From assembly GCA_046765795.1 (NCBI GenBank), contig JBKPRH010000150.1, forward strand, positions 1 through 50,136: a stretch of DNA of 50,136 nucleotides. Reading direction: 5' to 3'. This document shows, piece after piece, positions 8,596-50,136 of the stretch. The stretch comes from Acidobacteriota bacterium. Lineage in GTDB: Bacteria; Acidobacteriota; Vicinamibacteria; Vicinamibacterales; UBA2999. The notes beneath the pieces were generated by a model. It searched no databases. It was given only the letters and a program-made list of their open reading frames with translations, and was not told where the DNA came from. Every line of letters begins with the position of its first letter. Within the stretch, counting starts at the first letter, position 1. A program made the position numbers and the translations under genes.

Positions 8596-9722
8596 ACGGT
8601 GGCAACTGCGAGCGGCGCGCCGATGCGCTTATAGACCTCCAGCGTGCGAGCGACAGACCGTTCCCACGAGAACTCGCGCGAGCGTTCGAGACCTTTACGA
8701 CGCATCTCGTCGGCGCGTGCAGGGTTCGTCAGCACGCATCGCAGGCCGTCCACGATTGAGTCGATGTCGTGCGGATCCACCAGCACGGCGGCATCGCCGA
8801 CGACCTCAGGCAGCGACGACACGTTCGAGACGACGACCGGTGTGCCACTGGCCATGGCTTCGAGCGGCGGCAGACCGAAGCCCTCGTAGAGCGACGGGAA
8901 GACAAAGACGGCGGCGAGCCGATACAGCACGGCGAGTTGATCGTCGGGCACGTAACCGAGGAAGCGCACGTGCTTGTGCAGTTTGTGGCGATGCACCGCG
9001 TGCCGCAAGGCCGGCAGCTTGGAGATCTCGTCACCGATGATGAGCAGCTTCAGATCTTCGAGGTCGCCCGTCCGCAGCTCGCTGAACGCCTCAATCAGCC
9101 TGACCAGGTTTTTATGCGGCTTGATGTTGCCGACGTACAACAGAAACCGGTGATCGAGTTGATAGCGCTCACGCACGCGCGCCACGGCATCCGGGTGCGG
9201 CGTCACCGAGAAGTGCGCGTCGATCGCGTTGTACACGACGACGATCTTCTCGGGCGGGATGTTGAACAGGTGCAGGATGTCGCGCTTCGACGCGTCGGAC
9301 ACCGTCAGGATGCAATCGGACCTGTGCGCCGCCGTCCACATCTGCGCCCGTGCGTAGGCATAGGCCATGCGGTTCGGCAGATACTGCGGAAACATCAGGT
9401 GAATGCAGTCGTGGATCGTGACAACCGAGTTGCAGTGAATCGCCGCCGGTAGCACGTAGTGTGGTGCGTGGAAGAGATCCGGTCGCTCACGGCGCAGCAC
9501 CCAGGGCACGTGGATCTGCTCGCGAATGGAGTAGTTCGGCGCGGGCTCGAGCACTGAGCGGAAGTTGGGCCCGAGCTGAGCTGCGACGCCCAGGTCAGCC
9601 TCGGTGCACAGCAGGACAAACTCCGTGTCGTGGTCGATTCGCGCAAGATGCCGCAGCAGATTGCGGATGTACGTACCGATGCCGAAGTCGTGGAGCTTGC
9701 GCGCATCGATCGCGACTCGCAT
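8592..9722 (-). CDS. Glycosyltransferase family 4-like
   Basis: [10 protein letters not shown] start. [22 protein letters not shown] motif. ATGA overlap with the next gene. Confidence 0.8.
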
Positions 9723-9740
9723 GTCGCCAGAGATTTTACT

Positions 9741-9796
9741 GGCTTTGGGCGTTGGACTTTAGGCTTTGGGAGTTGGGACTTGGGAGTCGGGAATTG
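9741..9796. repeat. Degenerate tandem G/T-rich repeat (about 21-nt unit, GGCTTTGGGnGTTGGnACTT); C/A-rich on the transcribed minus strand
   Basis: Unit 1 is 9741-9761, unit 2 is 9762-9782, then a partial third unit. A related copy (TTGGGCGT..TGGGAGTTGGGAGTTGAATTG) lies at 33537-33572. Confidence 0.5.
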
Positions 9797-9798
9797 CG

Positions 9799-11166
9799 TT
9801 ACCGATCCCAACCCGGCCAGTTCATCCGATGGCGGCGGCGGATGTCTCGCAGTACGCCTGGATAGACGCCACTTTGACGCGCGGCCTCGCCAGCCGTGTC
9901 GACGGCCGCCCGAATTGGCGCAGCGTTGCTATACAACGAGTCGACCCAACCCTGACAATTCAGCGTCGACGCCCCATTGAGGCGGATACCGTTTGTCTCG
10001 AAGACCGAGAACCACGGCCGGTCGCCGCTCCGCGACGAGGACAATACACAGGAGCCCGCGTACTTGTCCCAATACGCGTCGAGCTGTGCGCCGTTCTTAT
10101 CGGCCCACTCGATCACTTGCGCATATGTCTGCTCACCCTTGGCTCGCGCCGAATCGGTCTCGCTCGGGCCGCCCATCGCCTTGGTCAGCGCCGTGAGCGG
10201 CGTTTGAGAGGTATTGCCACTCACTTGGCCATCCAGCAGATCCATGGCGTGATCGATCGCCACTGCGAAGGCGAGGCCTTGACCGGCCTGTGCGGCAACG
10301 GCCAATGAATTCACCCCGATGACCGAGCCGGACCGATCGACGAGTGGCCCGCCGCTGTTGCCCGGATTGATCGCCGCGTCCGTCTGGATGAGCGTGATGT
10401 TGCCAATCTGCCGCACCGCGCTGACGATGCCGCGTGTCACGGTATTCGAGAGCACACCGAGCGCTGACCCGACGGCGATGACCTCCTGGCCGACACGGGC
10501 GTGTGTCACCGAGCCCATCGTCAACACCGGCTGACTCGGGTTCGCACCGTACACCTGAAGCAACGCGAGATCGCTGCCGGTCGAAACCGTCTGCACGCGT
10601 GCGTTGTACGTCGCGGTGCCCACCTGCAGCGTCACCGACGTTTGACCCTGGATGACGTGCGCGTTGGTCAGCACTTGATCGGGCTTGATGAAGAAGCCGG
10701 TCCCGCGCGACGGTCCCGCAGTGATCGACGCGACGGCCGGAAGGATACGGCTGACGACGTCTTCGAGAGACGCGGTCGGGGGCGGGTCTGGTGTGGTCGG
10801 CGTGGACTCCGTTGGTGTGTCCACCAGCGCCGGCGCCGCGTCGGCGACAGGCAATGAGACTTGCGCTGCCGGACCGGCGGCGGTCGCCGCTGCTTTCGCG
10901 GGGACGGGTGCGCTCTCGCGAAGCAGATACAGGGCGACGATTCCGCCAGCGACGATCACCAGCAAGCTCAGAAACACGATGCGGCTCGAGTCCTGCCGCG
11001 GTTGTGCGGGCGGCGGCGGTGCGGACGGCGCCGGTGCGCTGATCGGCGCGTCAGCTGGCGTTTCCGCATGCTGAAACCCGCATCTGCACTCGTCAACACG
11101 TCTCGGCACACGACGGCCGCACGACGGACACGTCCAGGAGACGTTGGTTGAGCCGGGCTGCTTCAT
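9799..11166 (-). CDS. Membrane-anchored trypsin-like serine protease (S1C/HtrA-like catalytic domain) with N-terminal zinc ribbon and no PDZ domain
   Basis: CPSCGRRVPRRVDECRCG zinc-ribbon motif, one TM helix (IVFLSLLVIVAGGIVALYLL) and a P/A-rich linker. Catalytic motifs TNAHV, SDLALL, GNSGGPLV. The C-terminal roughly 130 aa is not recognisable. Confidence 0.8.
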   Translation of the reverse strand: MKQPGSTNVSWTCPSCGRRVPRRVDECRCGFQHAETPADAPISAPAPSAPPPPAQPRQDSSRIVFLSLLVIVAGGIVALYLLRESAPVPAKAAATAAGPAAQVSLPVADAAPALVDTPTESTPTTPDPPPTASLEDVVSRILPAVASITAGPSRGTGFFIKPDQVLTNAHVIQGQTSVTLQVGTATYNARVQTVSTGSDLALLQVYGANPSQPVLTMGSVTHARVGQEVIAVGSALGVLSNTVTRGIVSAVRQIGNITLIQTDAAINPGNSGGPLVDRSGSVIGVNSLAVAAQAGQGLAFAVAIDHAMDLLDGQVSGNTSQTPLTALTKAMGGPSETDSARAKGEQTYAQVIEWADKNGAQLDAYWDKYAGSCVLSSSRSGDRPWFSVFETNGIRLNGASTLNCQGWVDSLYSNAAPIRAAVDTAGEAARQSGVYPGVLRDIRRRHRMNWPGWDR

Positions 11167-11210
11167 GAGTCGCTTGCGGAGACCGGGGCTCGCGAGAGAC
11201 CGACCTCCGT

Positions 11211-12038
11211 CTACGAGTTATCGGGTAGTTCGCCGCGGACCTTCAGGTAAGCGCGGAGCCACGGCAGCCATGCTGGATGATGTTTGGCGTAGAAGGCGAG
11301 CTGACTGCGACGATATGCCGCGGCGGTCGTCGCGCCGGCGGATCGCCCGCGCAGGTGCTGGATTTCGACGTCAGCGACGAAGAGCACTTTTCGCCCACGC
11401 GTGCGCACCGATGCACAGAGATCCACATCCTCGGTGTAGAGAAAGAAGCGTTCGTCGAGGAGTCCAGCGGCTTCGAGATCGGCGCGACGAATCAGCAGGC
11501 ACGCGCCGCTGACCCAATCGACCGCGTGCGTGTGCCGCGTCATGCGATCGACCATCGTGACGATCGGTCGCACGCCTCGGTCGTTGCCGACCACGAGCGC
11601 CTTCTGTCTCAACTCCGTCAGCGGTGCAATCATCGACCCAAACGACAGCTCGGCTCGCCCCTCGCCATCCACGATCCGCGGCCCGACGATCGCGGCCTCG
11701 CGACGCGCATCGAGATGCGCCACCAATCGATCGATGGCTCCCGGCGGAACACTCGTATCGGGATTGAGCAGTAACACGAGCTCCGACGAGGACTCACGAA
11801 TGCCGCGATTGTTGGCGGCGGCGAATCCCAGATTGCTGCGCGACGCGATCAGCCTGACGCCAGGCCAGGATGTACGAATGCGCGTGACCGTGTCGTCGGT
11901 GGAGGCGTTGTCCACGATGACAATCTCGTGCGTGGTCGCCGGAGGCGGGTCGGTGAGCGACCGCAACACGCGGTCGATGTCGCGTGCCGAGTTGTAGGTG
12001 ACGATGACGATGGTGACGCGCGGAGCAGCAGTCGTCAT
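11211..12038 (-). CDS. Glycosyltransferase family 2
   Basis: VTIVIVTYNSARDI, DNASTDDT and a DxD-like EDVDL. Start set at ATG 12038, which forms an ATGA overlap with the upstream stop. The maximal ORF reaches 12089. Confidence 0.8.
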   Translation of the reverse strand: MTTAAPRVTIVIVTYNSARDIDRVLRSLTDPPPATTHEIVIVDNASTDDTVTRIRTSWPGVRLIASRSNLGFAAANNRGIRESSSELVLLLNPDTSVPPGAIDRLVAHLDARREAAIVGPRIVDGEGRAELSFGSMIAPLTELRQKALVVGNDRGVRPIVTMVDRMTRHTHAVDWVSGACLLIRRADLEAAGLLDERFFLYTEDVDLCASVRTRGRKVLFVADVEIQHLRGRSAGATTAAAYRRSQLAFYAKHHPAWLPWLRAYLKVRGELPDNS

Positions 12039-13105
12039 TTCGCGCACGCCAACAGCACCTGCAACGTGCGCCGCGCGCACTCGTCCCACGAATATCGCTC
12101 GACCTGCGCTTTGCCCGCTTCGACAAGACGCTGTCGCACGATCTGGTCTTCGAGGACCCGTTCGAGGGCGGTGGCAATCATCGATGGCTCGGGTTGTGCG
12201 ACGTACTCCGCCGCCGGGCCATAGATCTCGCGACCAATTTCGGTATCGAGCACGACCACCGGGATTCCACCGGCCATCGCTTCGAGCGGAGTGAGCCCGA
12301 AACCCTCATACTCCGACAGAAAGGCAAACGCCGATGCCCGTGCGTATAGCGACGAGAGCTCGGCGTCGGAGACGTATTGCCGTGCCCGAATCCGATCACG
12401 AGCCTCCGAGCGCGCGATGAGCGCATCGACATCGATCGCCGGCAGCGTGCGATTGTCGCCGACAATCTCGAGCCGCGCAGTGGGGTGGTGTGCTGCCAGT
12501 TGGGAAAACCCCTCGATCAATTCCGGGACGTGGCGACGATTGAACAACGAACCGACGTAGAGCACGAGCGGCTCACGCGTGGCTTGCGTCCGCAGCGTCG
12601 TCGTCCCCAGATAGATCACGTCCACGCGCGATTGATCCAGGCCGAGATAGCGAACGGCTTCGCGTTTGGTGAAGTCCGACTGCGTGAGGACACGGGCCGC
12701 GCGTTTGGCGCTGGCTTTTGTCAATACTCGACGACGGACGCCTTCACGCCAGGAAAACCATTCGGGATGCGCGACGAACGAGACGTCGTGCACCGTCAGC
12801 ACGACGGGCACAGGACTCGTCAGCGGTGCGGTGTAGGCGGGAGCGAACAGAACGTCGGCGCGCGCTTGTCTGATCAGACCAGGTAGCACCAGCTGCTCCC
12901 ACATCGTCCCGTGTCCACTGGCCGAAAGGCGCGATACGGTAAGCGGTGCCCAGCCCGCATCGGAATGTTGGTCGGGGGAACAGAGGATGAATTCGTGAGC
13001 GGTCGCGCCGGGGAGCTTGGTCCAGGCCGAAAGAATCTGAGACAAATATCGGCCGACGCCGGTCGGCTTGCCGGCGAGCTCGCGCGCATCGATGGCGATT
13101 CGCAT
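12035..13105 (-). CDS. Glycosyltransferase family 4-like
   Basis: MRIAIDARELAGKPTGVGRY start at 13105. LSEYEGFGLTPLEAMAGGIPVV motif. The upstream ORF extension to 13213 overlaps the preceding gene and is rejected. Confidence 0.8.
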   Translation of the reverse strand: MRIAIDARELAGKPTGVGRYLSQILSAWTKLPGATAHEFILCSPDQHSDAGWAPLTVSRLSASGHGTMWEQLVLPGLIRQARADVLFAPAYTAPLTSPVPVVLTVHDVSFVAHPEWFSWREGVRRRVLTKASAKRAARVLTQSDFTKREAVRYLGLDQSRVDVIYLGTTTLRTQATREPLVLYVGSLFNRRHVPELIEGFSQLAAHHPTARLEIVGDNRTLPAIDVDALIARSEARDRIRARQYVSDAELSSLYARASAFAFLSEYEGFGLTPLEAMAGGIPVVVLDTEIGREIYGPAAEYVAQPEPSMIATALERVLEDQIVRQRLVEAGKAQVERYSWDECARRTLQVLLACAK

Positions 13106-13110
13106 CGTGA

Positions 13111-14223
13111 TTAGCGCGCTCCTCGACGGGCAACGGCATCCCGGTAGGCCTGTGCGAGTGTGGCGGCCGTCCCTTCCCACGTGAACGCTTTTGCCCGATC
13201 GAGACCCGCGCACGCCAGGTCGCGCGCCATAACGTCATCACCCGCGAGGCGATCGATGACCGACGCCCACTGGTCAGTGTCGTGGGGTTCGATGAGGAGT
13301 CCACCCTTTGCGACGACTTCTGGCAACGAGCCGCGATTGGAAGCGACTAGCGGCACGCCGGCCGACATGGCTTCAAGTGCTGTCAACCCGAAGCCCTCAT
13401 CGAGCGACGGGAGCAAGAGCATCCGCGCCCCTGCAAACAGCGCTTCACGCCGCTCGTCGGTGACGTAGCCGACATATTCAACGGCGTCTTTGAGTGGGGG
13501 CTGCGCGATGCGCGCGAGCCACTCCTTCGCGTCGGCGGTGGCGCTTCCGGCGATCACGAGTTTCGGCCTCTGCCCTGACTGAGCCAATCGCGTGAAGGCA
13601 TCGAGGACCACGCCGACGTTCTTACGTGCTTCGAGCGTGCCCAAGAGCAGTGCGTATCCCTTGGACGGCACATTCGGGCCACGGCCGAGCGTCATCCAGG
13701 CCGGCGCGCCGGGCGGGCAGCAGTAGACGCGATCCTGCGCAACTCCGAAGCGCTCAACGATCTGGCGGTGCGTGCGAACCGACGACGTAATGATGGCGTC
13801 GGCGCGCCGCGCATGCTCGGGCGCCAATTCCGGATAGTCGCGCCGGATCTCGTCGCGCACGCGTTCCGGATGATCGAGGAAGAAGAGGTCGTGAATCGTG
13901 ACGATCTGGGCTGCATGCCGCGATGGAATCAGCAGCGGATGCGCTGCATGGACGACGTCCACGCGTCCAGCCAACAGTTCGACCGGCGGCCATTCTCGGC
14001 GATGCCAGAAGTAGTTGAGGACTGATACCGGAACCCGGCGATCGACGACGGCGGCTCGAAGCTCAGCACCGAGTGTCGGTGCGGGCCGATCCTTCCAGGA
14101 ACTTGTGAAGAGCGCGAGGTCGTCGCGATGAGTGACCGTGTACGCCTGCACGAGACGCCGGATGTACTCGCCGACACCTGTGCGTGCGCGTAAGGCCGGT
14201 CGGTAGTCCACGAGAATCCGCAT
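13111..14223 (-). CDS. Glycosyltransferase family 4-like
   Basis: MRILVDYRPALRARTGVGEY start at 14223. PSLDEGFGLTALEAMSAGVPLV motif. Confidence 0.8.
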   Translation of the reverse strand: MRILVDYRPALRARTGVGEYIRRLVQAYTVTHRDDLALFTSSWKDRPAPTLGAELRAAVVDRRVPVSVLNYFWHRREWPPVELLAGRVDVVHAAHPLLIPSRHAAQIVTIHDLFFLDHPERVRDEIRRDYPELAPEHARRADAIITSSVRTHRQIVERFGVAQDRVYCCPPGAPAWMTLGRGPNVPSKGYALLLGTLEARKNVGVVLDAFTRLAQSGQRPKLVIAGSATADAKEWLARIAQPPLKDAVEYVGYVTDERREALFAGARMLLLPSLDEGFGLTALEAMSAGVPLVASNRGSLPEVVAKGGLLIEPHDTDQWASVIDRLAGDDVMARDLACAGLDRAKAFTWEGTAATLAQAYRDAVARRGAR

Positions 14224-39972: not shown

Positions 39973-41382
39973 TCACTCGGAGCGCTCGAACACGATCCGC
40001 TGATCGTCGGCGTAGGTGCGCAACATTGCACGGTCGTTTTCGAGACGATGGGCGAGTGGTGAATCAGTCGCGACCACCGCACAACGGATTCCGTACTCGC
40101 GAAACACCTTCAGATACTCGCCGTGCAGGTCGGCCTCGCGACTCTGTTTGAGCAGATCGAGCGGATACGCATTCATCCGGCTATCGACGAATATTGGCCG
40201 AGAGGGAAGAGCCCACATTAGATAGCCACCGTCTTCGAGCCGGTTGAACAGACGGTCGGGACACTTGCGAACGGCTTCAATCAATGACGGCGACAGCGGT
40301 TGCCATCCCAATCGTTCGCCGCCGTCTTGCCAGCGTGCCCGAACGACCAGTACCGCGACAGCGACCGCGAGCGCGAGCATCACGTACGCCAAGCGACCGA
40401 CGGGCCGCAGCCTGCGCTGAGTGGCCTCTTGCCAGGTGCACAGACGTGACAGCACCGGCGCGGCGATTACGGCGAAGAACGCAACGTTTCGGGACGCGCC
40501 GACCGATGCTGCAGCCAGCAGCAGCGCAGCGACGAGGAGAGCGCGATCGGCACGGCTCCAATCACGCAGCGTGTCACGTCGTGCCCAGGTCATGACGACC
40601 AGCGTCACGGCGGCGATCCAGAACGGGAGACTCGCGGCGTCGAGCGGCGCTCGGTATTCGTGTAACTCGAGTGCTCTGGAGATCGACACGGTGTTCACCG
40701 CTTCGGTCCAGTAATACCAGCCGCCCGGAGACACCATCACAGCTGCTGCACACGCCACGGCAATGAGCACGTCGCGCACCGCGCGCGCTCTCGACCAGAC
40801 GATCGCCTCGAGGGCAACAGCTCCAGCGAGAAGTACACCGAAGACCACCTGCGGATGTGCGTTCGCCCACACGACGCAGAGCAGCGGCAGCCACGCCGTG
40901 CGATCGTGCACGACGAGGTACGACGCAAGCACCATGAGCGCAAGGCTGATGACCTGCGGGCGGACCGCCCACTCGGGCGCGGTCGCGATCATGAGAAACA
41001 GCAGGAGAACGAGGCGGGCTTCCCAGGGACCTCGAATGAGACGCCACGATCCGTAGACCGCAATGAAGCCGCACGCGCCAGCGAAGACGGTGAGCAGCAG
41101 CGGGCCTCCCCACGTGAACAACGCGTAGAACGTGAGTTGGCTCAGCCACCAGTAATTGCGAAACTCACGGCCGAGGGCCGTGTGCGAGAAAGGTTCGGCG
41201 GTGAGAAATGAGCCGGTCTCCCACATGGCCTGCCCTGACCGAAGGTGCCACCATGTGTCGTTCTGCGCCGGCGTCAACCAGACGAATGCTGCGAGGCCGA
41301 TAAAGAGGAGCAGGGAAACAAATGTCTCGTCGGTCAGGACGGACCGTCGTGAGATGGAGGCGATCACGGGAACCCGGACCAC
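39973..41382 (-). CDS. Polytopic inner-membrane protein, GT-C / O-antigen-polymerase-like topology (function unknown)
   Basis: At least 10 hydrophobic helices. An early loop with NDTWWHLRSGQ, and a soluble C-terminal roughly 110 aa. No STT3 WWDYG motif seen. Confidence 0.6.
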   Translation of the reverse strand: MVRVPVIASISRRSVLTDETFVSLLLFIGLAAFVWLTPAQNDTWWHLRSGQAMWETGSFLTAEPFSHTALGREFRNYWWLSQLTFYALFTWGGPLLLTVFAGACGFIAVYGSWRLIRGPWEARLVLLLFLMIATAPEWAVRPQVISLALMVLASYLVVHDRTAWLPLLCVVWANAHPQVVFGVLLAGAVALEAIVWSRARAVRDVLIAVACAAAVMVSPGGWYYWTEAVNTVSISRALELHEYRAPLDAASLPFWIAAVTLVVMTWARRDTLRDWSRADRALLVAALLLAAASVGASRNVAFFAVIAAPVLSRLCTWQEATQRRLRPVGRLAYVMLALAVAVAVLVVRARWQDGGERLGWQPLSPSLIEAVRKCPDRLFNRLEDGGYLMWALPSRPIFVDSRMNAYPLDLLKQSREADLHGEYLKVFREYGIRCAVVATDSPLAHRLENDRAMLRTYADDQRIVFERSE

Positions 41383-42656
41383 GTGACGATGGTGCGATAG
41401 CGGACCGCCTCACCGTTCCTGGTTGCCGGACTGAATCTCCATAACTTTGCGCCGCTCAACAGCATCATGTCGGGCATACGCGTCGGACCGTTGACGAGAC
41501 GCACGCGTTCGACAGTGCCATCGGCGGCGACGACCAACTCCATTCGGTTGATGACGGTCACATCCGCATTCCTGGCCACGAAGACGGTTGGCGGCAGAGA
41601 CGGGTACAGCATGACCGGCGGCTGCACGTCGGCGTCTGCGGCGGAGTAGATCGTCGTGGTCGCGCCCTCGTGCGGTGCCACCACGTACTCGCGCGTCGCC
41701 GCAACCAGTGGACCGGTTGCTTTCGTCGTCTCGCGTGTCGGTGTTTCCGGTACCTGCGGTCGCGCTTCAGACGCGCGAATGGCTGACGGATCGAATAAGG
41801 GCGCCGGGGTCTGAGCCAGAACATCTGCGCGTGGCGTGCGGTCCCGTGGAGTCGATTGCGCGCGAGCGCTTGCGCTCTGTGCCGGCCCCCGTTCGGCGAC
41901 AGTCGATTTCGACGTTTGCCGCTTACCGTTCGTCGGTGTTGGACTCGCGTCCTTCGCTGTTGCCGGCGCCTCAGCGGTCGCCGCCGCAGCATTCGTCGGC
42001 GCGACTCCGGATGCAGCGGCGTTGCCGCCGCCGCCGAGCACGCCAAACCAGATCACAGCCGCGAGACTCACCACGCAGACGGCGACTGCCGCCGGCATGA
42101 GCCATTGCGGTGTGCCGCGTCGGTCCTCGGGAAACTCGTCGCCTCGGGCCGGGTTGTTTGGAAGCGGCGGGGGAGTCGTCGACCGTACCGATGTCGACGA
42201 CGCCTGCGCTAACGGAGCGATACTTCGATGGCGCTCGTAAAGGGCGCGAATCATGTCGCTGCGTCCAGGCTTGCCGAAGTAGGCGAGCGCGTCTGTGAAC
42301 GCCTTGAGCGATTTGTGGGTCTCAGGTGCGTTCGCCTGGGTGACAAAGAGCCGGAGGGGCAGTGGGACGTCGGCGGTTGCGAGCAGCGTATGCAGCGCTC
42401 GCCCGGCGGCGACAGGGCCGCGTTCCCCGCGGCGCGCGGCGTTGATTCTCACCGCGCCCTGGTCGTCAATCAGGACGTCTTCGAACGCCGGAATCGGTGC
42501 GTCCCCCCCGCCGCCTGCAGTGATCGTTTCCAGGATCTCCTGCAGCAGAGCGACTGCCTCGTCCCAGCGAATGGGGACCCCACGCGCCAAGATGTCGCTT
42601 ACACGCACAGGCCCATCCTGTTCAGAGGCGAACTCATTGAGGAACTCGGTGCTCAC
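41364..42656 (-). CDS. Bitopic protein: cytoplasmic N-domain, TM helix, P/A-rich linker, TonB-C-like domain
   Basis: TM WLMPAAVAVCVVSLAAVIWFGVL. C-terminus ELVVAADGTVERVRLVNGP...AKLWRFSPATRNGEAVRY resembles the TonB C-terminal fold. The N-terminal 150 aa is unassigned. Confidence 0.6.
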   Translation of the reverse strand: MSTEFLNEFASEQDGPVRVSDILARGVPIRWDEAVALLQEILETITAGGGGDAPIPAFEDVLIDDQGAVRINAARRGERGPVAAGRALHTLLATADVPLPLRLFVTQANAPETHKSLKAFTDALAYFGKPGRSDMIRALYERHRSIAPLAQASSTSVRSTTPPPLPNNPARGDEFPEDRRGTPQWLMPAAVAVCVVSLAAVIWFGVLGGGGNAAASGVAPTNAAAATAEAPATAKDASPTPTNGKRQTSKSTVAERGPAQSASARAQSTPRDRTPRADVLAQTPAPLFDPSAIRASEARPQVPETPTRETTKATGPLVAATREYVVAPHEGATTTIYSAADADVQPPVMLYPSLPPTVFVARNADVTVINRMELVVAADGTVERVRLVNGPTRMPDMMLLSGAKLWRFSPATRNGEAVRYRTIVTWSGFP

Positions 42657-42770
42657 CGGCGAACTCCAGACGACTGTCTGCTCCGGCCCAGACAGTTAAT
42701 GCCATATGGTCCAGTAACGGCCGATTCGGGGGCCACCATCGGGGAATACGGTTTGCTCCCTCTAGCGGCC

Positions 42771-43460
42771 ATGACCATTGCTCCCCGACATCTCTCCCGA
42801 CTGACCAACGGGATTGGCTTCACTGTTTTTGCCGTCTGGGCCGCAGTGACCCTGAGCAAGATGCCTGCCGTGGGCATCATGCTGGCGCCCACGTTTTTGA
42901 TGGAAGTGGCCGTCGCGATCTCGTTCCTCATCCGGGACGAACCCAAAGCGGTGACCAAGACACTGCGTGCCCGCGTAAGTGCCTATGGCGGCTCGTTCTT
43001 CGCGCTCGTCTTTCTCCAAATCGGACAGCGGTGGCATCCCGAATGGTTCGCGCCTCAGTTCACGCCATTTACGCCAATCGCAATCGTCCTGTGGCTGGGG
43101 GGCACACTCTTGACGGTCTACGCGGTCTGGCATCTGCGCTATGCGTTCAGCATCGAACCCGCTGCGCGCCGGCTCGTGACCTCGGGTCCGTACACCTTCG
43201 CGCGGCATCCTGTGTATACGGGCTACTTCGCCCAGTATCTCGGCATGCTGATCACGCTTCCCTCGGTACCCTTCGCGCTGGCCCTGACGCTGTGGGCCGC
43301 AGCGATGATCGACCGGATGTACCTGGAGGAAGCGGTCCTGCGTGAAGCCTTCCCGGAGTACGTCGACTACAAGCGTCGCGTCGGGGCACTCTTCCCGCGG
43401 CCCGTGCGCCGTGCCGCTCGAGCCGCCACTGCACAGCAGCCTGACGTCGCCAGCGTTTGA
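42771..43460 (+). CDS. Isoprenylcysteine carboxyl / phospholipid methyltransferase family membrane protein
   Basis: Start at MTIAPRHLS. LVTSGPYTFARHPVYTGYF motif and multiple TM helices. The ORF track start at 42228 is antisense to the TonB-like gene and is rejected. Confidence 0.75.
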   Translation: MTIAPRHLSRLTNGIGFTVFAVWAAVTLSKMPAVGIMLAPTFLMEVAVAISFLIRDEPKAVTKTLRARVSAYGGSFFALVFLQIGQRWHPEWFAPQFTPFTPIAIVLWLGGTLLTVYAVWHLRYAFSIEPAARRLVTSGPYTFARHPVYTGYFAQYLGMLITLPSVPFALALTLWAAAMIDRMYLEEAVLREAFPEYVDYKRRVGALFPRPVRRAARAATAQQPDVASV

Positions 43461-43481
43461 CATCACGTGCCTTTCAAGGGG

Positions 43482-45482
43482 CTACTGCAACGGCGAGTAG
43501 TAGCCGCCCCTGCTCCTGATCTCGATGTCGCGCGTTCGCGGTCGAATCTCGACCGTTCGCCACTGACCATCACGTTTGCGATTGGTCGACTGGTAGCCGA
43601 GCACGTAACGCCGGCGCAATTCATCGAGAATCTTCTGGTAGTCACTCGCCAGCGTGGTGACATCGCTCGGAAAGTACGCGGCACCGCCTGAGCGCTGGGC
43701 AAGCAGACGCAAGCGGTCGTGCTCGACGCGGCTGCCGATGCCTACCGCATACACCGTCGCATCCGTCTGCGCCAGCTTGTCGAGGACTTCGTCCCAACTG
43801 CGAAGGCTTCCGGGTCCGTTCGAGGTGGCGTTCTCGTCAATGCCGTCGGTCACGACGACGAGGACGCGGCGCGTGTCGCGCGCTTTCGCCAACTGCACCA
43901 GCGAGTCGTACAACGCGTCGTAGAGAGCGGTGCCTCCATCGGCCACGTAGTTGTCGATCGCGGCGCGCGTCGCCTCGCGCTTGTCCGTGGGTGCCTCAAT
44001 CGCTTCGGCCTTGGTGGCGAACATCATCAAGCCGACCTGATCTTCGGGCCGCATCGCGTCGATGAATTCGCGGGCCGCCTCCTGGGCACGTGCGGCGCTC
44101 TTCTTCATGCTGCCGCTGGCATCCAGCGCCATCATGAACGTCACCGGCTGCACCGCCTCCTGGAATACATCCATCTCCTGCTTCACGCCGTCCTCGAAGA
44201 CATCGATATCTTCGCGAGTGAGCGCCGCGGGTACTTGTCCGGTGCCGACGCCCGTGAACTCGATCGAGGCGCGGACCGGCGGCGGGATGGGTGCGGTGTA
44301 ACCCTTCCTGGCGCGCACGCGGTAGGTCTCATTGGCCGTTTTGACCTCGATGGCCCGCCACGTGCCGTCGCGATCCTGGTTCTTGGGTGTGTAGCCGAGC
44401 AGGTAATGGTTACGGACCTCGTTGGCGATCGCGTCATACGCGACGACGAGATCGCGCTCATCGCGAGGAAACCAGGCGCGACCGCCGGTGTCCTCGGCCA
44501 ATCCCTTGAGGAGCTTCTCGCCCTTCAGCGAAATACCCGCGATCCCGCCAAGTCCGACGACATAGAGCGTGATGCCGCTACTTTTCAATGCAGCAGTCGC
44601 CTGATCGATTTTCGAGTCACTGTTTTCATCGTAGCCATCGGTGATCAGCACGACGGCCTTGCGCCGTGTGGACGATGTCAACGTACTCGCGGCCTGGCCA
44701 AGCGCGTCGAGGATCGCGGTTCCGCCCTTGTGATGGATGGCGCTTATCGCGTCGAGCACCGTAGCTCGGTCGGTGGTCGGCCCAGTGACCGCGCCGATCG
44801 TTTTGGTGAATGGTGCGACCACGATCTCATCCGCCGCACCGAGCGGCTCGATCAACCGAGACGCCGCAGCACGCACGGCGTCCGAACGAATCGCCATGCT
44901 CTGGCTGCTGTCGACGAGCAGTGCGAAGAGGGCCGGGTCGCGATCCTGGCGAAGATAGTCGAGCTTCTGTGATTCGCCGTTTTCGAACAGGCTGAATTCC
45001 TTGTCGGTCAGGTCTTTGACGTAGTGCCCCTTCTCGTCCACCACCACGGCATCGACCGACACGCTCGACACCGAGGTCGCTTCTTCCACCTCCAGCGGCT
45101 TCAAAACCATGGTGTCGCGGATCATCGCTCCGGACGGGAGCTCCGCTTCGACCATCAGCTCGCGCGCTTCGAACGGGTTCTCATCCGACCACAACGCGTC
45201 GTAGGGTGGGCCGTCGGTATCGGCTGACAGGAACAGCTTGTCCACGTAAAACTGCACGTGCACCGGCTGCGGGCCGTCAACTCTGGCGACAATGCGGATC
45301 GTTCCCGGCAAACCAGTACGGCCAAGGGGAGAGGTGATGCGGATCGACGGATCGGCACCGCGCGCAGACGTAGCGACACCCATCGCGAGCGCTGCACCAA
45401 CCACCAGCGCGACGAGGGAGGCGCGACCGATCACACGAAGACCGGCGCCGGCTCGTGATCGTCGACGAAGTAACTGGCGCAT
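43482..45482 (-). CDS. Secreted protein with two tandem VWA modules (VWFA-related acidobacterial type)
   Basis: Signal peptide. Two repeats of the same architecture: V.V.V.D..G..V.DLT..DF.(V/L)FE(D/N)G, MIDAS LVDSSQSM / ALDASGSM, GGTA(I/L)(L/Y)DAL, ITDG/VTDG, and a tail YLLGYTPKNQDRDGTWR / YVLGYQSTNRKRDGQWR. ATG 45482 has GGAGG 4 nt upstream; GTG 45434 (GTGA overlap) is an alternative. Confidence 0.85.
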   Translation of the reverse strand: MRQLLRRRSRAGAGLRVIGRASLVALVVGAALAMGVATSARGADPSIRITSPLGRTGLPGTIRIVARVDGPQPVHVQFYVDKLFLSADTDGPPYDALWSDENPFEARELMVEAELPSGAMIRDTMVLKPLEVEEATSVSSVSVDAVVVDEKGHYVKDLTDKEFSLFENGESQKLDYLRQDRDPALFALLVDSSQSMAIRSDAVRAAASRLIEPLGAADEIVVAPFTKTIGAVTGPTTDRATVLDAISAIHHKGGTAILDALGQAASTLTSSTRRKAVVLITDGYDENSDSKIDQATAALKSSGITLYVVGLGGIAGISLKGEKLLKGLAEDTGGRAWFPRDERDLVVAYDAIANEVRNHYLLGYTPKNQDRDGTWRAIEVKTANETYRVRARKGYTAPIPPPVRASIEFTGVGTGQVPAALTREDIDVFEDGVKQEMDVFQEAVQPVTFMMALDASGSMKKSAARAQEAAREFIDAMRPEDQVGLMMFATKAEAIEAPTDKREATRAAIDNYVADGGTALYDALYDSLVQLAKARDTRRVLVVVTDGIDENATSNGPGSLRSWDEVLDKLAQTDATVYAVGIGSRVEHDRLRLLAQRSGGAAYFPSDVTTLASDYQKILDELRRRYVLGYQSTNRKRDGQWRTVEIRPRTRDIEIRSRGGYYSPLQ

Positions 45483-46783
45483 GCCGCCTCCAGCAGTTCA
45501 GAGGTAAGCCGTCGTTCCTCGCCGAGATATGACGCCTGGGCCAGCGCCTGATCGAGCAAGTCGCGAGGATGGCAGCCGCGGAGCGCGAGCTTGCGCGGAC
45601 GGTAATAGGTTTGAAGCAGCCCGTCGATGAGCGCCTCGTCGTACTCGATGCGCCGTTCGGCACAGCACTTGGCGAAGATTTCCTTGAAGTCAGCGATCGT
45701 CGGGCTTTCGCAGAACACCTTGTAGTGAATGCGTCGCAGGAAGGCTTCGTCAACGAGCTCCGACGGTCGGATGTTCGTGGCGAACACGACCAGCAGGAGG
45801 AAGGGCAGCTCGAACTTCTGTCCGTTGTTCAGAGTCAGGAAGTCGACGCGGCTCTCGAGCGGTACGATCCAACGATTCAAGAGCTCGCGCGCTGAACACC
45901 GCTGCCGGCCGAAGTCGTCGATCACGAGCACGCCGCCATTGGAGACGGCCTGAATCGGTGCCGTGTAGAAACCGGTCGTCTTCGAGTACGAGAGCTCGAG
46001 CGACTCCAGAGTCAATTCGCCACCGACCATCACGAGTGGGCGTTTGCAGCGCACCCATCGCCGATCGTGACCCGCGTCCCGCGCCAGGCTCAGCGTGTCT
46101 GTCCGTGTCGAAGACTCGAGTGGCTCGTGATTGACGGGATCGAAGAGGCGGATGATGTTGCCTTCGACTTCGAGCGCGTGGGGAACCGCCAGCTCGCCGT
46201 CGAGCAGACCGCGGATCGCTTGCGCAATCACGGTCTTGCCGTTGCCGGGAGGTCCATACACGAACATCGAGTGGGCGGCGCCGATCGCAGGACCCACTTG
46301 ATCGAGGACACGCTCACTCAAGACCAGATGCGAAAACGCGTCGCGCACGCGCGACCGGGTAATCGATCGCGGCACGGCATTGCGATACGCCTCGAGATAC
46401 GCGACGTACTGCGTCAGCGGCACCGGAGCGACGCCGACGTACTGATTGCCCTCGAGGAACAGCATCGCCCGCTGGCGTCCGCTATCGGTAATCCGATAGC
46501 GAAACGTCGGGCCGCCGATCCCACCGCCGCCGATGATTTCGCATTGATGCAGACGCTTGATGAAATCGAGTGCGGGATCGACGACGGAGAATTCGACGCC
46601 GAGGCGGCGGGCGATTTCGATGCCGGTCAGCTCGCCGGAGAAATGCAGTTGCTTGAGTACGAGTTGGACAAACAGGTCCAGGCTCAGTCCGGTCGCTTCC
46701 CGAGTGGTCGGGCTCGGTGGCAGGAGCGCCGCCGTGCGATCGGTAGCGTCCCGTGCGTCATCCGCCAGCACACGCGTCATCAT
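45431..46783 (-). CDS. AAA+ ATPase with an N-terminal winged-helix-like domain
   Basis: Walker A GPPGNGKT. Walker B GGVLVIDDFG. Sensor region VFATNIRPSELVDEAFLRRI. The N-terminal ELTGIEIARRLGV...FRYRITDSGRQ looks like a wHTH. ATGA overlap with the upstream TPR gene. Confidence 0.8.
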   Translation of the reverse strand: MMTRVLADDARDATDRTAALLPPSPTTREATGLSLDLFVQLVLKQLHFSGELTGIEIARRLGVEFSVVDPALDFIKRLHQCEIIGGGGIGGPTFRYRITDSGRQRAMLFLEGNQYVGVAPVPLTQYVAYLEAYRNAVPRSITRSRVRDAFSHLVLSERVLDQVGPAIGAAHSMFVYGPPGNGKTVIAQAIRGLLDGELAVPHALEVEGNIIRLFDPVNHEPLESSTRTDTLSLARDAGHDRRWVRCKRPLVMVGGELTLESLELSYSKTTGFYTAPIQAVSNGGVLVIDDFGRQRCSARELLNRWIVPLESRVDFLTLNNGQKFELPFLLLVVFATNIRPSELVDEAFLRRIHYKVFCESPTIADFKEIFAKCCAERRIEYDEALIDGLLQTYYRPRKLALRGCHPRDLLDQALAQASYLGEERRLTSELLEAACASYFVDDHEPAPVFV

Positions 46784-47697
46784 GGTTGGTTCCCTTCGTG
46801 CAGGTGGGCACGCACCTGCCGGGCAATCGCCTCGGCCTCACGAAATCGGGGTCGCTCGGCGCGCGCGACGTCGAACGACTGCAGCGCGTCGCGATACTCG
46901 CGTCGCGCCAGGTGGAGCAGACCTTTGTTATAGGCGGCTCGCGCCGCGTCGGTGGATGCGGCGAGCGTGGCGAGCGCGGAGGATAGATCGCCTGCGGCTT
47001 CGTAGGCGAGCGCAAGGTTGTTTCGAGCGGGCTCGAGCCCGGGCTGGAGTTGCAGCGCCTGACGGCACGCATCAGCAGCTTTTGAGGCGTTGCCTTCGAG
47101 TCTCCACGCGTAACACAGATTGCTCAGCGCGTACGCCGCGGTGACGTCGAGCGCGAGCGCCTGTTCGAACTGCGCTCTCGCGGCCGCGCGTTGACCGAGG
47201 GCCTGCAGCACAGTGCCGAGCGTGTTATGCACCGTGGGTGAGTCCGGCGCGTAGTAGAGGGCTCGATACGCATCCGACAGCGCAAGGTGCGGAAATCCCC
47301 AATCCCGCCAGATGCGGGCCAGCCCGTCCCACGAGGCGGCATCCGTCTGATCGAGTGCCACCGCCGCGCTGAAATGCTCGTGGGCCTGGTCGAGGACGCC
47401 GAGTTGGACATACCGTGCGGCCACAGTGCGATGGGCAACAGCGGTGGGCTGAATCTTTATCGCGGCGAGCGCTTCCGCGAGCGACGGATCGGATATCTCG
47501 ATCGTCGTCACGCGATTGACGGGTGGACGCGCTCGTTCCGACTTGGCGCGCACCTTGTCCATGTAGACGGTCAGCGAGTCGTCCGGCGGCCTTTGTGTAG
47601 GGGCCGCCGGAGCGGACTTGACCGAATGGGGCACGGTTCGGGTTGCACACCCGACCGTCCCTGCAACCAGGGCAAGGCACACGAAGAGCCGGTACAT
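46780..47697 (-). CDS. TPR-repeat lipoprotein (TadD-like position and architecture)
   Basis: MYRLFVCLALVAGTVGC lipobox-like signal. Several TPR units (AHEHFSAAVALDQTDAASWDGLARIW..., YYAPDSPTVHNTLGTVL...). AGGTG lies 5 nt upstream of ATG 47697. Confidence 0.7.
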   Translation of the reverse strand: MYRLFVCLALVAGTVGCATRTVPHSVKSAPAAPTQRPPDDSLTVYMDKVRAKSERARPPVNRVTTIEISDPSLAEALAAIKIQPTAVAHRTVAARYVQLGVLDQAHEHFSAAVALDQTDAASWDGLARIWRDWGFPHLALSDAYRALYYAPDSPTVHNTLGTVLQALGQRAAARAQFEQALALDVTAAYALSNLCYAWRLEGNASKAADACRQALQLQPGLEPARNNLALAYEAAGDLSSALATLAASTDAARAAYNKGLLHLARREYRDALQSFDVARAERPRFREAEAIARQVRAHLHEGNQP

Positions 47698-47725
47698 CAA
47701 ATCACCTGGGTCCTTTGGTGTGCGC

Positions 47726-47830
47726 CTAGTAGGTGTCGTTGCCTTCTTCGGCGCGGAGACGTGCTCGGCGCTTCAGAACGTAGAGCACAAGGCAAACGGC
47801 TCCGAGGGCGGCGAGAATGACCGTACTCAT
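47726..47830 (-). CDS. Candidate 34-aa single-pass membrane micro-protein (not in the ORF track)
   Basis: My own translation: MSTVILAALGAVCLVLYVLKRRARLRAEEGNDTY. ATGA overlap with the tadC stop. GGAGG lies 6 nt upstream, inside the last tadC codons. Confidence 0.5.
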   Translation of the reverse strand: MSTVILAALGAVCLVLYVLKRRARLRAEEGNDTY

Positions 47831-48756
47831 TTCTGTCCTCCAATTTGCATGTTGCTGAACACTTCGACCAACTTGATGACCCCAGGTCCAAGGGCGACGA
47901 CGAAAAATGCGGGAAGCAAGAGAAAGACGAGCGGAAAGATCAGCTTGACCGACAGCTTCGCCGCGCGCTCTTCGGCGCGTTGACGTCGCTTGACGCGCGA
48001 TTCTTCGGCGTGCGTGCGAAGCGCCTGGGCGACGCTGGTACCGAACCGATCGGTTTGCACGAGCATCGCGACGAGTGCGCGCACGTCGTCAACCTGCGTG
48101 CGTTTCGCAAAGTTCTTGAGCGCTTCCACACGCGGTTTCCCGGCCCGTGTTTCGGTGTTCACGAACTGCAGTTCCTCGGAGAGCGCCGGGTAGGCGATCA
48201 CGAGTTCTTCGGAGCACTTGAGGATCGCCTGGTCCAGAGCCAGCCCGGCTTCCAGGCTGACGATCAGCAGATCGAGTGCGTCGGGCAGACCGTTTTGAAT
48301 CTGCTTCTTGCGCTGACGGATACGTCTTGCCACGATGTACCCGGGAATCACGTAGCCGAAGATGGCGCCGGCGAGGCCAAAGAGCCATCCCGTGCGGAAT
48401 CCCATCACGAAGAACACGATGACGAAGCCGCCGACCGCACCAATCACTTCCGCGAGGGAGTAGATCAGGACGGGCGTGAAGCCGTGGAATCCGGCGGTGG
48501 CGAGCCGTCGTCGCAGCCGCCCCATTTCCTTCGGCGACTTCGGGATATACGACGCGATCTTTTGTTGCTCGGGCGTCGGCATTTCCGAGAGCCGCTGGCC
48601 GCCGTCCACGAACACGCCGGTGCGCGACTGGCCGTCGGTGGCAAGCAGGCGACGCCGGCCGGGGGCCTGGCGCGCGAGCAGGGCATTGGTCGCCGTGCCG
48701 GCGATTAACGCCAGTGATGCAAACAGCGCGAGTAGCGCAATGGTGAGTTCCGACAT
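47827..48756 (-). CDS. tadC: Tad/Flp pilus assembly inner-membrane protein TadC (T2SS-F domain)
   Basis: N-terminal TM, then a T2SSF-type helical domain (LPDALDLLIVSLEAGLALDQAI...) and C-terminal TM pair. Position is directly after tadB. Confidence 0.85.
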   Translation of the reverse strand: MSELTIALLALFASLALIAGTATNALLARQAPGRRRLLATDGQSRTGVFVDGGQRLSEMPTPEQQKIASYIPKSPKEMGRLRRRLATAGFHGFTPVLIYSLAEVIGAVGGFVIVFFVMGFRTGWLFGLAGAIFGYVIPGYIVARRIRQRKKQIQNGLPDALDLLIVSLEAGLALDQAILKCSEELVIAYPALSEELQFVNTETRAGKPRVEALKNFAKRTQVDDVRALVAMLVQTDRFGTSVAQALRTHAEESRVKRRQRAEERAAKLSVKLIFPLVFLLLPAFFVVALGPGVIKLVEVFSNMQIGGQK

Positions 48757-48757
48757 C

Positions 48758-49720
48758 TCAGTACTCGAGCTTGACCATCTTGCGGATGATCAGTGACCCA
48801 CTCACTTGCATGATGATCGCGGCGTAGATCATGCGCATCCCGAGTGGTGACCCCGTCAGCGTCTTGACGTGATCGGGGTTGAGCAGGAACAACATGAACG
48901 CCAGTGTCGGAGGCACGCCGACGAGCACGAAGCCGGTCATGCGCGCATGCGCCGAGATGACGCGAATCTGACGCTTGACCCGGAACCGGTCGCGGATGAC
49001 TGTTGCGATGTTGTCGAGAATCTCTGACAGGTTACCGCCCGATTCGCGCTGGATCATCACGGCGGTAACGAAGAAACGCGCATCGAGCAGCCACACGCGC
49101 CGCGCGAATTCCTTCAAGGCGTCAGGCAGCGGCATACCGTAGTTCTGCTGGTCGTAGAGCAGCTTGAACTCCGGTCCGATCGGTGCCGGCATTTCCTCCG
49201 CCACCATCGCCAGTCCGGTGGTGAACGTATGGCCAGCTTTGAGCGCGCGCGAGATGAGCGCCAGTGCCTCGGGGAACTGCTCTTCGAATTTCAGCATCCG
49301 TCTCGTGCGCATAAACCGCAGGATGCTCGTCGGGATTGTCGCAGTGAGCGCCCCAGCCCCAAGTCCCAGCCAGAAGAGCCCCGTGAGTTGATTGATGATG
49401 TACAACGTGGCCAGCCCGCACGTCGCCGACAACAGCAGGAACGTGGAGACCGTCATTCGGTTGCCCGATTGTTCGATCAGGAGTTCGATCGGCTTGAGCG
49501 CCTTTTCCCCGCGTCGGAGAGTGGCGTCGAGTGACGGCAGCGAGCTGAGCTGCTGCGCCTGTTTCAACAGCTTCGAACGCACTTCCCGCGACGGTGCCTT
49601 GACCTTCAACCGCCGCCAGAACGCTCGTTCGGCGTGAGCCTCTGGCCGGACGACGAACAGCCAGTACACACCGAGAATGCCGGTCAGGAGGACGACGAAC
49701 GAGACGACCACGATCCCCAT
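48758..49720 (-). CDS. tadB: Tad/Flp pilus assembly inner-membrane protein TadB (T2SS-F domain)
   Basis: Start set at [22 protein letters not shown] (49720, 1-nt overlap with the cpaF stop). FPEALALISRALKAGHTF T2SSF motif. Confidence 0.85.
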   Translation of the reverse strand: MGIVVVSFVVLLTGILGVYWLFVVRPEAHAERAFWRRLKVKAPSREVRSKLLKQAQQLSSLPSLDATLRRGEKALKPIELLIEQSGNRMTVSTFLLLSATCGLATLYIINQLTGLFWLGLGAGALTATIPTSILRFMRTRRMLKFEEQFPEALALISRALKAGHTFTTGLAMVAEEMPAPIGPEFKLLYDQQNYGMPLPDALKEFARRVWLLDARFFVTAVMIQRESGGNLSEILDNIATVIRDRFRVKRQIRVISAHARMTGFVLVGVPPTLAFMLFLLNPDHVKTLTGSPLGMRMIYAAIIMQVSGSLIIRKMVKLEY

Positions 49721-50136
49721 CAGAATCTCCGTTCGTGACGTACCTGGTTGACGGGATGCGCGTGTGAAAACATGTCCATCGGCAGTTGCCGGCCGGTCGC
49801 TGCGATACGGTCGGCGCACTTCGGCCGGACGCCCGTCGCGCGGAAGCCGCCGACCACTTTCCCAGCCTCGTTGATCCCGCTCTGGTGGAACTGGAAGATC
49901 TCCTGCATGGCGATCACGTCCTGCTCCATGCCCGTGATTTCGGAGATCGACGTCACGCGACGGCTGCCGTCGGTGAGACGTGTCACCTGAATCACGAGGT
50001 TCACCGCCGAGGCGACCTGCTGCCGCACGGCGCGGTCAGGAATGTTCAGATTGGCCATGGCGATCATCGTGTCGAGGCGATACAACGCGTCGCGTGGGCT
50101 GTTCGCGTGGATGGTCGTCAACGACCCGTCGTGGCC
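49720..50136 (-). CDS. cpaF: CpaF/TadA secretion ATPase, C-terminal part (gene continues beyond the window)
   Basis: [24 protein letters not shown]...[25 protein letters not shown] is typical of the VirB11/CpaF C-terminal domain. Confidence 0.9.

Follow-up and report, generated by a model that had tools for sequence, protein, structure and literature searches.

A winged-helix AAA+ ATPase and an exported double-VWA protein encoded in the distal half of the Tad pilus operon of Vicinamibacteria

Introduction

Among type IV filaments, Tad pili are the most widespread, and the classical Tad/Flp (type IVc) representatives are encoded by the tad locus of A. actinomycetemcomitans, the cpa locus of Caulobacter and the rcp-tad locus of P. 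aeruginosa. The cytoplasmic side of the machine is not known to require more than CpaF and TadZ. In this work, we analyzed a stretch of Acidobacteriota DNA of 50,136 nucleotides (nt; contig JBKPRH010000150.1 of GenBank assembly GCA_046765795.1, the whole of which is called the window below), which ends within a Tad operon. Behind tadC, this operon carries four further genes, namely those for a membrane microprotein of 34 amino acids (aa), a lipoprotein with tetratricopeptide repeats (TPR), an AAA+ ATPase with an N-terminal winged helix-turn-helix domain (wHTH-AAA+), and an exported protein with two von Willebrand factor A (VWA) domains.

With the classical systems, the locus shares CpaF/TadA, TadB, TadC and a TadD-like TPR protein within the window, and TadE-like, CpaB/RcpC, CpaC, TadG-like and TadZ proteins in the orthologous operon of related genomes. 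Two features of described pili are of particular relevance for the distal genes. TadD is a pilotin lipoprotein that binds the RcpA/CpaC secretin and is needed for secretin assembly (PMC10499894), and VWA domains at the pilus tip mediate adhesion and mechanosensing (PMC12607857). A first-pass annotation, made from the nucleotide sequence by itself, had proposed the ATPase and the VWA protein as an accessory module of the Tad machine and had known of no earlier account of such a module. Our literature search led to the same result, as no AAA+/VWA module in Tad loci was found, and nothing was found on the function of TIGR03436 proteins or on the ATPase family either. A 2026 preprint on Bdellovibrio was considered as a precedent and discarded, since its "AAA ATPase" refers to TadA/TadZ. 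The Tad pilus is a known system, and its accessory gene set described here is undescribed in the literature searched.

In the following, the operon membership, conservation, domain content and predicted compartments of the gene products are documented. From these, we lean towards a reading in which the window holds the distal half of a Vicinamibacteria-type Tad operon that this lineage has extended by four genes after tadC, whose lineage-specific ATPase regulates or remodels the Tad machine and whose exported, adhesin-like VWA protein is its partner.

Results

Seven genes lie on the minus strand between positions 43482 and 50136 of the window, in the order cpaF (3' end), tadB, tadC, 34-aa open reading frame (ORF), TPR gene, AAA+ gene and double-VWA gene, exactly as initially annotated. 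Translation of 49720-50136 (minus strand, as for all genes of the operon) gives the 3' part of cpaF/tadA, the Tad secretion ATPase, which continues past the window end and whose full-length orthologue in the related locus L004 matches Pfam T2SSE (2.5e-59). The inner-membrane platform protein TadB (48758-49720; Pfam T2SSF 2.4e-20) starts with an ATG at 49720 that is preceded by GGAG, and the second platform protein TadC (47827-48756) matches T2SSF with 1e-17. The core of a Tad system, CpaF/TadA together with two T2SSF platform proteins, is thereby present. It is followed by the single-pass membrane microprotein (47726-47830; MSTVILAALGAVCLVLYVLKRRARLRAEEGNDTY), the TadD-like TPR lipoprotein and putative secretin pilotin (46780-47697/47700; Pfam TPR_2 3e-18, TPR_1 2e-14), the predicted cytoplasmic wHTH-AAA+ ATPase of an unnamed family (45431-46783; 450 aa; recognized by its Walker motifs and a structure model), and the double-VWA protein (43482-45482; 666 aa), which consists of a signal peptide, an Ig-like domain and two VWA domains of the TIGR03436 type.

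The packing of these genes is as tight as had been stated. The stop codon of cpaF (TGA, 49720-49722) overlaps the start of tadB by 1 nt (TGATG), tadB and tadC are separated by 1 nt, and ATGA overlaps join both tadC to the 34-aa ORF and the TPR gene to the AAA+ gene. Between the 34-aa ORF and the TPR gene, the distance is 28 nt to an ATG start and 25 nt if a TTG is used instead. The AAA+ and VWA genes overlap by 52 nt when the VWA gene is read from the ATG at 45482, which has a GGAGG 4 nt ahead of it. However, the VWA start is ambiguous and this long overlap is not certain: an in-frame GTG at 45434 would reduce it to a 4-nt GTGA overlap with the ATPase stop, and the starts of the VWA orthologues mostly lie between -4 and +31 nt relative to the AAA+ stop. 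The longer VWA N-terminus is conserved in some orthologues, which may only mirror the ATPase C-terminus in another reading frame. In a pattern scan of 42500-50136, neither strand showed a sigma-70-like promoter, and the coding strand was also free of terminator-like sites, in line with the earlier observation that no promoter or hairpin separates the genes.

To place the operon in a wider context, relatives were collected by an ATPase scan with one genome per species, which yielded 325, and the best 80, all Vicinamibacteria-like and almost all labelled Vicinamibacteria or Acidobacteriota, were examined for synteny. The counts for tadB/tadC, the TPR gene and the VWA gene were obtained from tblastn searches with the window proteins. 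The closest ATPase relative (locus L001) has an identity of 94%, which assigns the window to a Vicinamibacterales bacterium. Upstream of the AAA+ gene and on the same strand, tadB and tadC were found in 68/70 loci with enough flanking sequence and the TPR gene was detected in 63/70, while the VWA gene followed downstream in 72/76 loci, 67 times within 500 bp. This gene order is retained down to an ATPase identity of 53% and across about 70 species genomes. The tight spacing is conserved as well, as the start codon in the AAA+ frame lies between -17 and +31 nt from the TPR stop in 63/68 loci, most commonly at -4. Since each of the genes is conserved in order in dozens of species, they are real genes and not chance ORFs. 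Judged by gene order and spacing, the AAA+ and VWA genes belong to the Tad operon throughout the class Vicinamibacteria, where they are conserved and closely packed rather than casual neighbours. This agrees with the accessory module that had been suggested at the outset.

The full operon was derived from a Pfam annotation of the 10 kb upstream in L004, followed by tblastn on all loci. It reads TadE-like, CpaB/RcpC, CpaC secretin, TadG-like (PF13400), TadZ, CpaF, TadB, TadC, TPR, AAA+ and VWA, with the microprotein between tadC and the TPR gene. The complete order from TadE to VWA is directly visible in 18 loci, and most of the others show truncated or sub-threshold versions of it; CpaB, CpaC, TadZ and TadE/TadG-like genes are present upstream in orthologous loci, including L001. 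The 10 kb of upstream sequence searched in L004 gave no Flp pilin and no A24 prepilin peptidase. The initial view that the AAA+ and VWA genes sit where tadE, tadF and tadG are normally located had to be abandoned, as the TadE-like and TadG-like (PF13400) genes are located upstream in the same operon of the orthologous loci and not after tadD as in the classical systems. Five loci with Vicinamibacteria-like content and ATPase identities of 59-67% (L017, L053, L060, L063 and L031) are titled "uncultured Bifidobacteriaceae" or "Deltaproteobacteria" and are probably mislabelled metagenome bins.

The 34-aa microprotein matched neither a Pfam nor an NCBIfam model. Nevertheless, an ORF of about 30 aa with the same pattern lies between tadC and the TPR gene in 68/71 related loci, and the 34-aa ORF is therefore considered a real gene. 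The shared design comprises a short N-terminus, about 17 hydrophobic residues, a tyrosine or phenylalanine, and an RRRxRLxxED-like tail. The microprotein should reside in the inner membrane with its basic tail on the cytoplasmic side. The adjacent TPR protein carries the lipobox-like signal LVAGTVGC at its N-terminus, and a lipobox-like ...[GAS]C is found in at least 47/65 of its orthologues. In addition, a weak match to PilW was obtained, which remained below the threshold. With its TPR matches, the lipobox-like signal and a conserved position after tadC, the protein has the sequence attributes of TadD, and it is likely a TadD-like lipoprotein that serves as secretin pilotin. Its predicted location is outside the cytoplasm.

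In the VWA protein, TIGR03436, to our knowledge a large paralogous family of VWA proteins in Acidobacteria, matched in two stretches with 296 bits against a cutoff of 81.25 (4e-88), and Pfam VWA matched in two stretches as well (2.3e-29), accompanied by a weak match to the Ig model Big_7. The signal peptide and the two modules with metal-ion-dependent adhesion sites (MIDAS) noted before were both recovered, with the motifs DSSQS...T...D and DASGS...T...D, and the two DxSxS motifs are retained in 59/63 orthologues. A DUF58 match falls inside the second VWA module, and the operon holds no separate DUF58 gene. The signal peptide has a positively charged N-terminus, and the orthologues of the loci examined uniformly open with a hydrophobic signal peptide, followed by the start of the Ig domain at (V/I)RITSPLGRTG. 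The protein should hence be exported, with its VWA domains outside the cytoplasm. Neither a Tad (PF13400) or TadE match nor a prepilin site of the G/A-X4-F/E type was found in it, and a phmmer search against PDB sequences returned no match.

For the ATPase, the reported Walker A (GPPGNGKT) and Walker B (VLVIDDF) motifs were found, and residues including K183, D289, D290, N337 (sensor 1), R350/R351 and R407 are invariant. An AlphaFold2 (AF2) model from only 18 close homologues, a shallow alignment, was unusable (pLDDT 52). The model from 67 diverse sequences reached a pLDDT of 80.7 and a pTM of 0.77 and contains a confident winged helix at residues ~28-112, as had been suspected, an AAA+ core into which a large and partly disordered stretch (197-272) is inserted, a beta-hairpin (313-327) that precedes the sensor-1 strand, and a helical lid. 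Walker A and B, sensor 1, one or more arginine fingers, sensor 2 and an alpha/beta core with lid are thus all in place for a member of the AAA+ superfamily, and the AF2 fold and more than 1300 matches to AAA+ structures agree on this. In every aligned family member, Walker B reads hhhhDD, with the usual catalytic glutamate replaced by aspartate, which suggests slow hydrolysis or a switch-like behaviour. No signal peptide or membrane segment was found in the protein, and it is predicted to be cytoplasmic.

The position of the ATPase within the superfamily is less clear. No family-level match was obtained in Pfam or NCBIfam. Mg_chelatase was the sole Pfam model past its cutoff (24.7 bits compared to 20.3) and covered 39/207 model positions, while AAA_5 (18.8 bits, cutoff 22) and bpMoxR (17.6 bits, cutoff 27) remained sub-threshold in stretches that comprise only or mainly the Walker A region, and AAA_3 gave no match. 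The top Foldseek match in the PDB was 8p49, an uncharacterised archaeal hexamer from P. furiosus, with a TM score of 0.45; the literature search on this structure yielded just a homo-oligomer atlas. Spastin, RuvB, Rix7 and FtsH came next and BchI followed at rank 18, and none of the MoxR structures RavA, CbbQ and NorQ was among the top 50. A profile search of PDB sequences favoured classical AAA proteins (Cdc48, Vps4, spastin), in the Walker A and sensor-1/arginine-finger segments only, and phmmer matched PDB sequences solely around Walker A. In hhalign comparisons with single E. coli proteins, RavA scored 91% over 62 columns around Walker A, and YifB scored 88% over 134 columns, the only alignment to span Walker A, Walker B and sensor 1. 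With 82% each for the controls RuvB and FtsH, these comparisons do not place the ATPase confidently in a clade. It can be described as a divergent AAA+ protein that is possibly nearest to the Mg-chelatase/YifB/MoxR superclade and not demonstrably a MoxR protein. An assignment as defence system is not supported, because PADLOC gave just IetA and TRIP13 matches to the Walker A region.

The ATPase family extends far beyond this operon, with 3437 clusters at 50% identity and E <= 1e-3, 779 of them with 1e-30. It was sampled via 80 genomes, 80 metagenome loci and nine look-ups, whereby profile searches for distant clades mostly returned consensus-like members from Chloroflexota and Vicinamibacterales. 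Among the sampled loci, a second type of Tad locus was encountered (L083, L084, L088, L089, L153, L161, L164 and L165, some labelled Vicinamibacterales). These type-2 loci encode Flp, A24 peptidase, CpaB, CpaC, in some cases TadG, TadZ, CpaF, TadB, TadC, the AAA+ ATPase, a PEMT/ICMT-like protein and DUF192. Their ATPases, examined on long contigs, are homologues at 45-50% identity, and the genes directly follow tadC and overlap it by 4-8 nt. TPR, VWA and microprotein genes were not found in type-2 loci, and the microprotein is likewise absent from the stand-alone cassettes discussed below. In a neighbour-joining tree, the ATPases of the two Tad locus types form sister clades, with a stand-alone Chloroflexota-type clade adjoining. 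Since type-2 loci lack the VWA gene, the link between ATPase and Tad genes is independent of it, although the AAA+ and VWA genes still tend to stay together where both occur. The recruitment of the ATPase to Tad operons is recurrent and, in Vicinamibacteria, nearly universal.

More distant members of the family carry N-terminal FHA (P0155, P0161) or HDOD (P0193) domains; their genes lie on short contigs, and their contexts are uninformative. Elsewhere, the downstream neighbours are varied and include GDPD, tubulin-like, Ser/Thr kinase and PilZ proteins (L091, L108, L111, L117). Taken together, the domains and neighbours of these relatives point to signalling roles outside Tad contexts.

The distal boundary of the operon is a gene for a PEMT/ICMT-like membrane methyltransferase on the plus strand (42765-43460; Pfam PEMT 4.7e-10, ICMT 1.1e-7). 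It runs convergently to the VWA gene, with 21 nt between its end and the VWA stop, and does not belong to the module in the window. In type-2 loci, PEMT/ICMT-like and DUF192 genes follow the ATPase gene in the same direction (L084, 9383-10084; L088, 9363-9983 and 10061-10438), and no PEMT/ICMT-like gene was found in the 80 type-1 loci. A link between the methyltransferase gene of the window and that of the type-2 loci is unproven. Genes beyond the VWA gene are heterogeneous across the related loci, save for a recurrent TonB_C-like gene. In the window, the gene at 41364-42656 (minus strand) specifies 430 aa, which comprise an N-domain on the cytoplasmic side, a single membrane segment, a linker rich in Pro, Ala and Thr, and a weak match to TonB_C. 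At least 8/42 related loci have a TonB_C-like gene behind the VWA gene, and in L019 such a gene stands directly after the ATPase gene, in the place of the VWA gene. The TonB_C-like protein may be a loosely attached further member of the module.

Discussion

In the reading we favour, the ATPase would control the assembly or the activity of the Tad machine from its cytoplasmic face, as an ATP-dependent remodelling factor or switch that acts on the TadB/TadC platform, CpaF, TadZ or the prepilin. A regulatory switch is preferred because of the DD Walker B and the signalling fusions (FHA, HDOD) of its relatives, and the Ser/Thr kinase and PilZ neighbours of relatives are further hints of a regulatory character. 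The VWA protein would be exported by the Sec pathway and made alongside the pilus, as a metal-dependent adhesin or an envelope- or pilus-associated binder, a role that VWA domains have in TadG/CpaL and PilY1-type proteins (PMC12607857). ATPase and VWA protein would then be co-expressed parts of one apparatus, in which the ATPase has no MoxR-type grip on a cytoplasmic VWA protein. The findings that could have spoken against an accessory module point the other way, as co-occurrence with tad genes is strongly conserved, no promoter or terminator was found between the genes, and the ATPase falls into no family with an established unrelated role. A more specific and more tentative proposal, which we regard as plausible without considering it probable, is that the ATPase joins CpaF and TadZ as an unrecognised third cytoplasmic ATPase of the Tad machine. 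Docked at the TadB/TadC platform, perhaps via the basic tail of the microprotein, it would gate assembly, retraction or the deployment of the VWA adhesin.

Several points weigh against the favoured reading. The part ascribed to the ATPase is deduced from synteny and domains, and DNA could be a ligand of its winged helix. In the upstream direction, the other half of the operon, with the secretin and probably the pilin and peptidase genes, lies beyond the window and is known from orthologous loci only, and the signal peptide of the VWA protein was judged by eye and by conservation rather than with a dedicated predictor. In addition, L057 (TPR-AAA-VWA, 8999-13370) and L059 (AAA-VWA, 9412-12727) have no tadB or tadC within 9-10 kb. 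In L057, the upstream genes encode a metallo-beta-lactamase-fold protein, HupE and a HAD hydrolase. The cassette is thus detachable from the pilus genes, and the two loci argue for some coupling between the ATPase and the VWA protein. In a metagenome sample centred on a distant clade, tad genes were located near the ATPase gene in 5/80 loci; of these five, L153, L164 and L165 belong to the type-2 clade, and L163 and L095 are separate lineages in the tree. Both Chloroflexota-type contexts examined, that of Thermoflexus and that of an unlabelled metagenome contig from the same cluster, are stand-alone. As most sampled members elsewhere are not linked to Tad genes, the basic activity of the family is not specific to Tad.

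The alternative that survives best, while still being unlikely, is a DNA-binding, ATP-dependent regulator of the tad operon or of a pilin gene that is no component of the machine. The confidently predicted N-terminal winged helix is consistent with this, some sources name homologues as MarR/PadR-type regulators, relatives carry signalling inputs (FHA, HDOD), and the basic residues R97, R103 and R105 in the wing and the next helix are conserved. However, the winged-helix domain is acidic across the family, with a median pI of 5.4 and a median net charge of -2, and the putative recognition helix has a median net charge of 0, which argues weakly against DNA binding. Furthermore, the gene lies in the interior of a structural operon, flanked by genes for exported proteins and, as it appears, in translational coupling with them, an arrangement that would be unusual for a regulator but does not exclude one.

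Slightly less likely is a MoxR-class AAA+/VWA chaperone pair, as the first-pass annotation had suggested by analogy, in which the ATPase would remodel or mature the VWA protein or its bound target for the Tad machine. The AAA-VWA adjacency is highly conserved, with the two genes usually abutting, it persists in L057 and L059 without tadB and tadC, and the Mg_chelatase, RavA and YifB comparisons show a weak similarity to the MoxR/Mg-chelatase superclade. Against these points, MoxR-type models remained sub-threshold or absent, the profile search of PDB sequences led to classical AAA proteins, and no MoxR structure was among the top 50 Foldseek matches. With the VWA protein exported by a conserved signal peptide and the ATPase in the cytoplasm, a direct MoxR-like grip is topologically unlikely, and the ATPases of the sister clade in Tad loci without a VWA gene make such a grip unnecessary. 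The analogy with MoxR is therefore not upheld.

Improbable is a Tad machine that also secretes the double-VWA protein, with the ATPase aiding export, for example by keeping cargo or pilins export-competent. Type IV filament machines do include secretion systems, the VWA protein is exported and apparently co-transcribed at the operon end, and the conserved membrane microprotein could couple the two compartments. However, the signal peptide of the VWA protein is of the ordinary Sec type, its N-terminus is not pilin-like, and type-2 loci retain the ATPase without a VWA cargo gene. Least probable of all, even if most family members elsewhere are not Tad-linked and a TIGR03436 paralogue from so large a family could land anywhere, are unrelated passengers fixed at the operon end in this lineage, given that the order is kept over such distances, that start and stop codons overlap, and that the ATPase gene has a link of its own to tadC in the type-2 loci and in two further lineages.

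If the favoured reading of a Tad-associated ATPase with an exported partner is correct, the extra AAA+ ATPase, the microprotein and the exported double-VWA protein would widen the Tad parts list in an abundant soil lineage and would offer an entry point to the attachment of Acidobacteria to soil particles or roots. These genes would also supply a genomic context, and with it a hypothesis open to testing, for an AAA+ family that is very large and unnamed and has no Pfam or NCBIfam model and no close solved structure. Should a third cytoplasmic Tad ATPase be confirmed, this would be the first functional handle on a family of more than 3,400 clusters (50% identity) with FHA- and HDOD-bearing members.

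Comparison With Known Systems

Compared to the classical Tad/Flp systems, the operon holds three extra conserved genes without a classical counterpart, those of the microprotein, the wHTH-AAA+ ATPase and the exported double-VWA protein. Of the VWA proteins known from type IV pili, TadG/CpaL and PilY1 are the closest parallels, as a MIDAS-VWA protein is encoded in the pilus operon there as well. The protein described here differs in having no pilin-like N-terminal module; its Sec-type signal peptide is followed by an Ig domain and by two TIGR03436 stretches in tandem, and a separate TadG-like gene is present upstream.

The pairs RavA-ViaA, NorQ-NorD and CbbQ-CbbO resemble the distal genes in that an AAA+ gene is immediately followed by a MIDAS-VWA gene, and in a weak similarity of the Walker A region and the beta-hairpin before sensor 1 in the model. 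Here, however, the ATPase has GPPGNGKT as Walker A, DD in Walker B and a winged helix added at the N-terminus, no MoxR-type model reached its threshold, no MoxR structure is among its top 50 Foldseek matches, its VWA partner is exported and not cytoplasmic, and it also occurs at Tad loci without a VWA gene. The Bat module (MoxR, DUF58, BatA/BatB VWA, BatC TPR) likewise brings TPR, AAA+ and VWA proteins together, but its NCBIfam models were far sub-threshold (BatA 69.3 bits compared to 380, BatC 15.8 compared to 175), a separate DUF58 gene is missing, and the TPR protein of our operon is a lipoprotein in the TadD position. With YifB/ComM and ChlI/BchI, the ATPase shares the Mg_chelatase match above the cutoff, the 134 columns aligned to YifB and the BchI match at Foldseek rank 18, whereas it has no Lon-like or chelatase-specific domains, a different N-terminal domain and TM scores of ~0.3-0.45.

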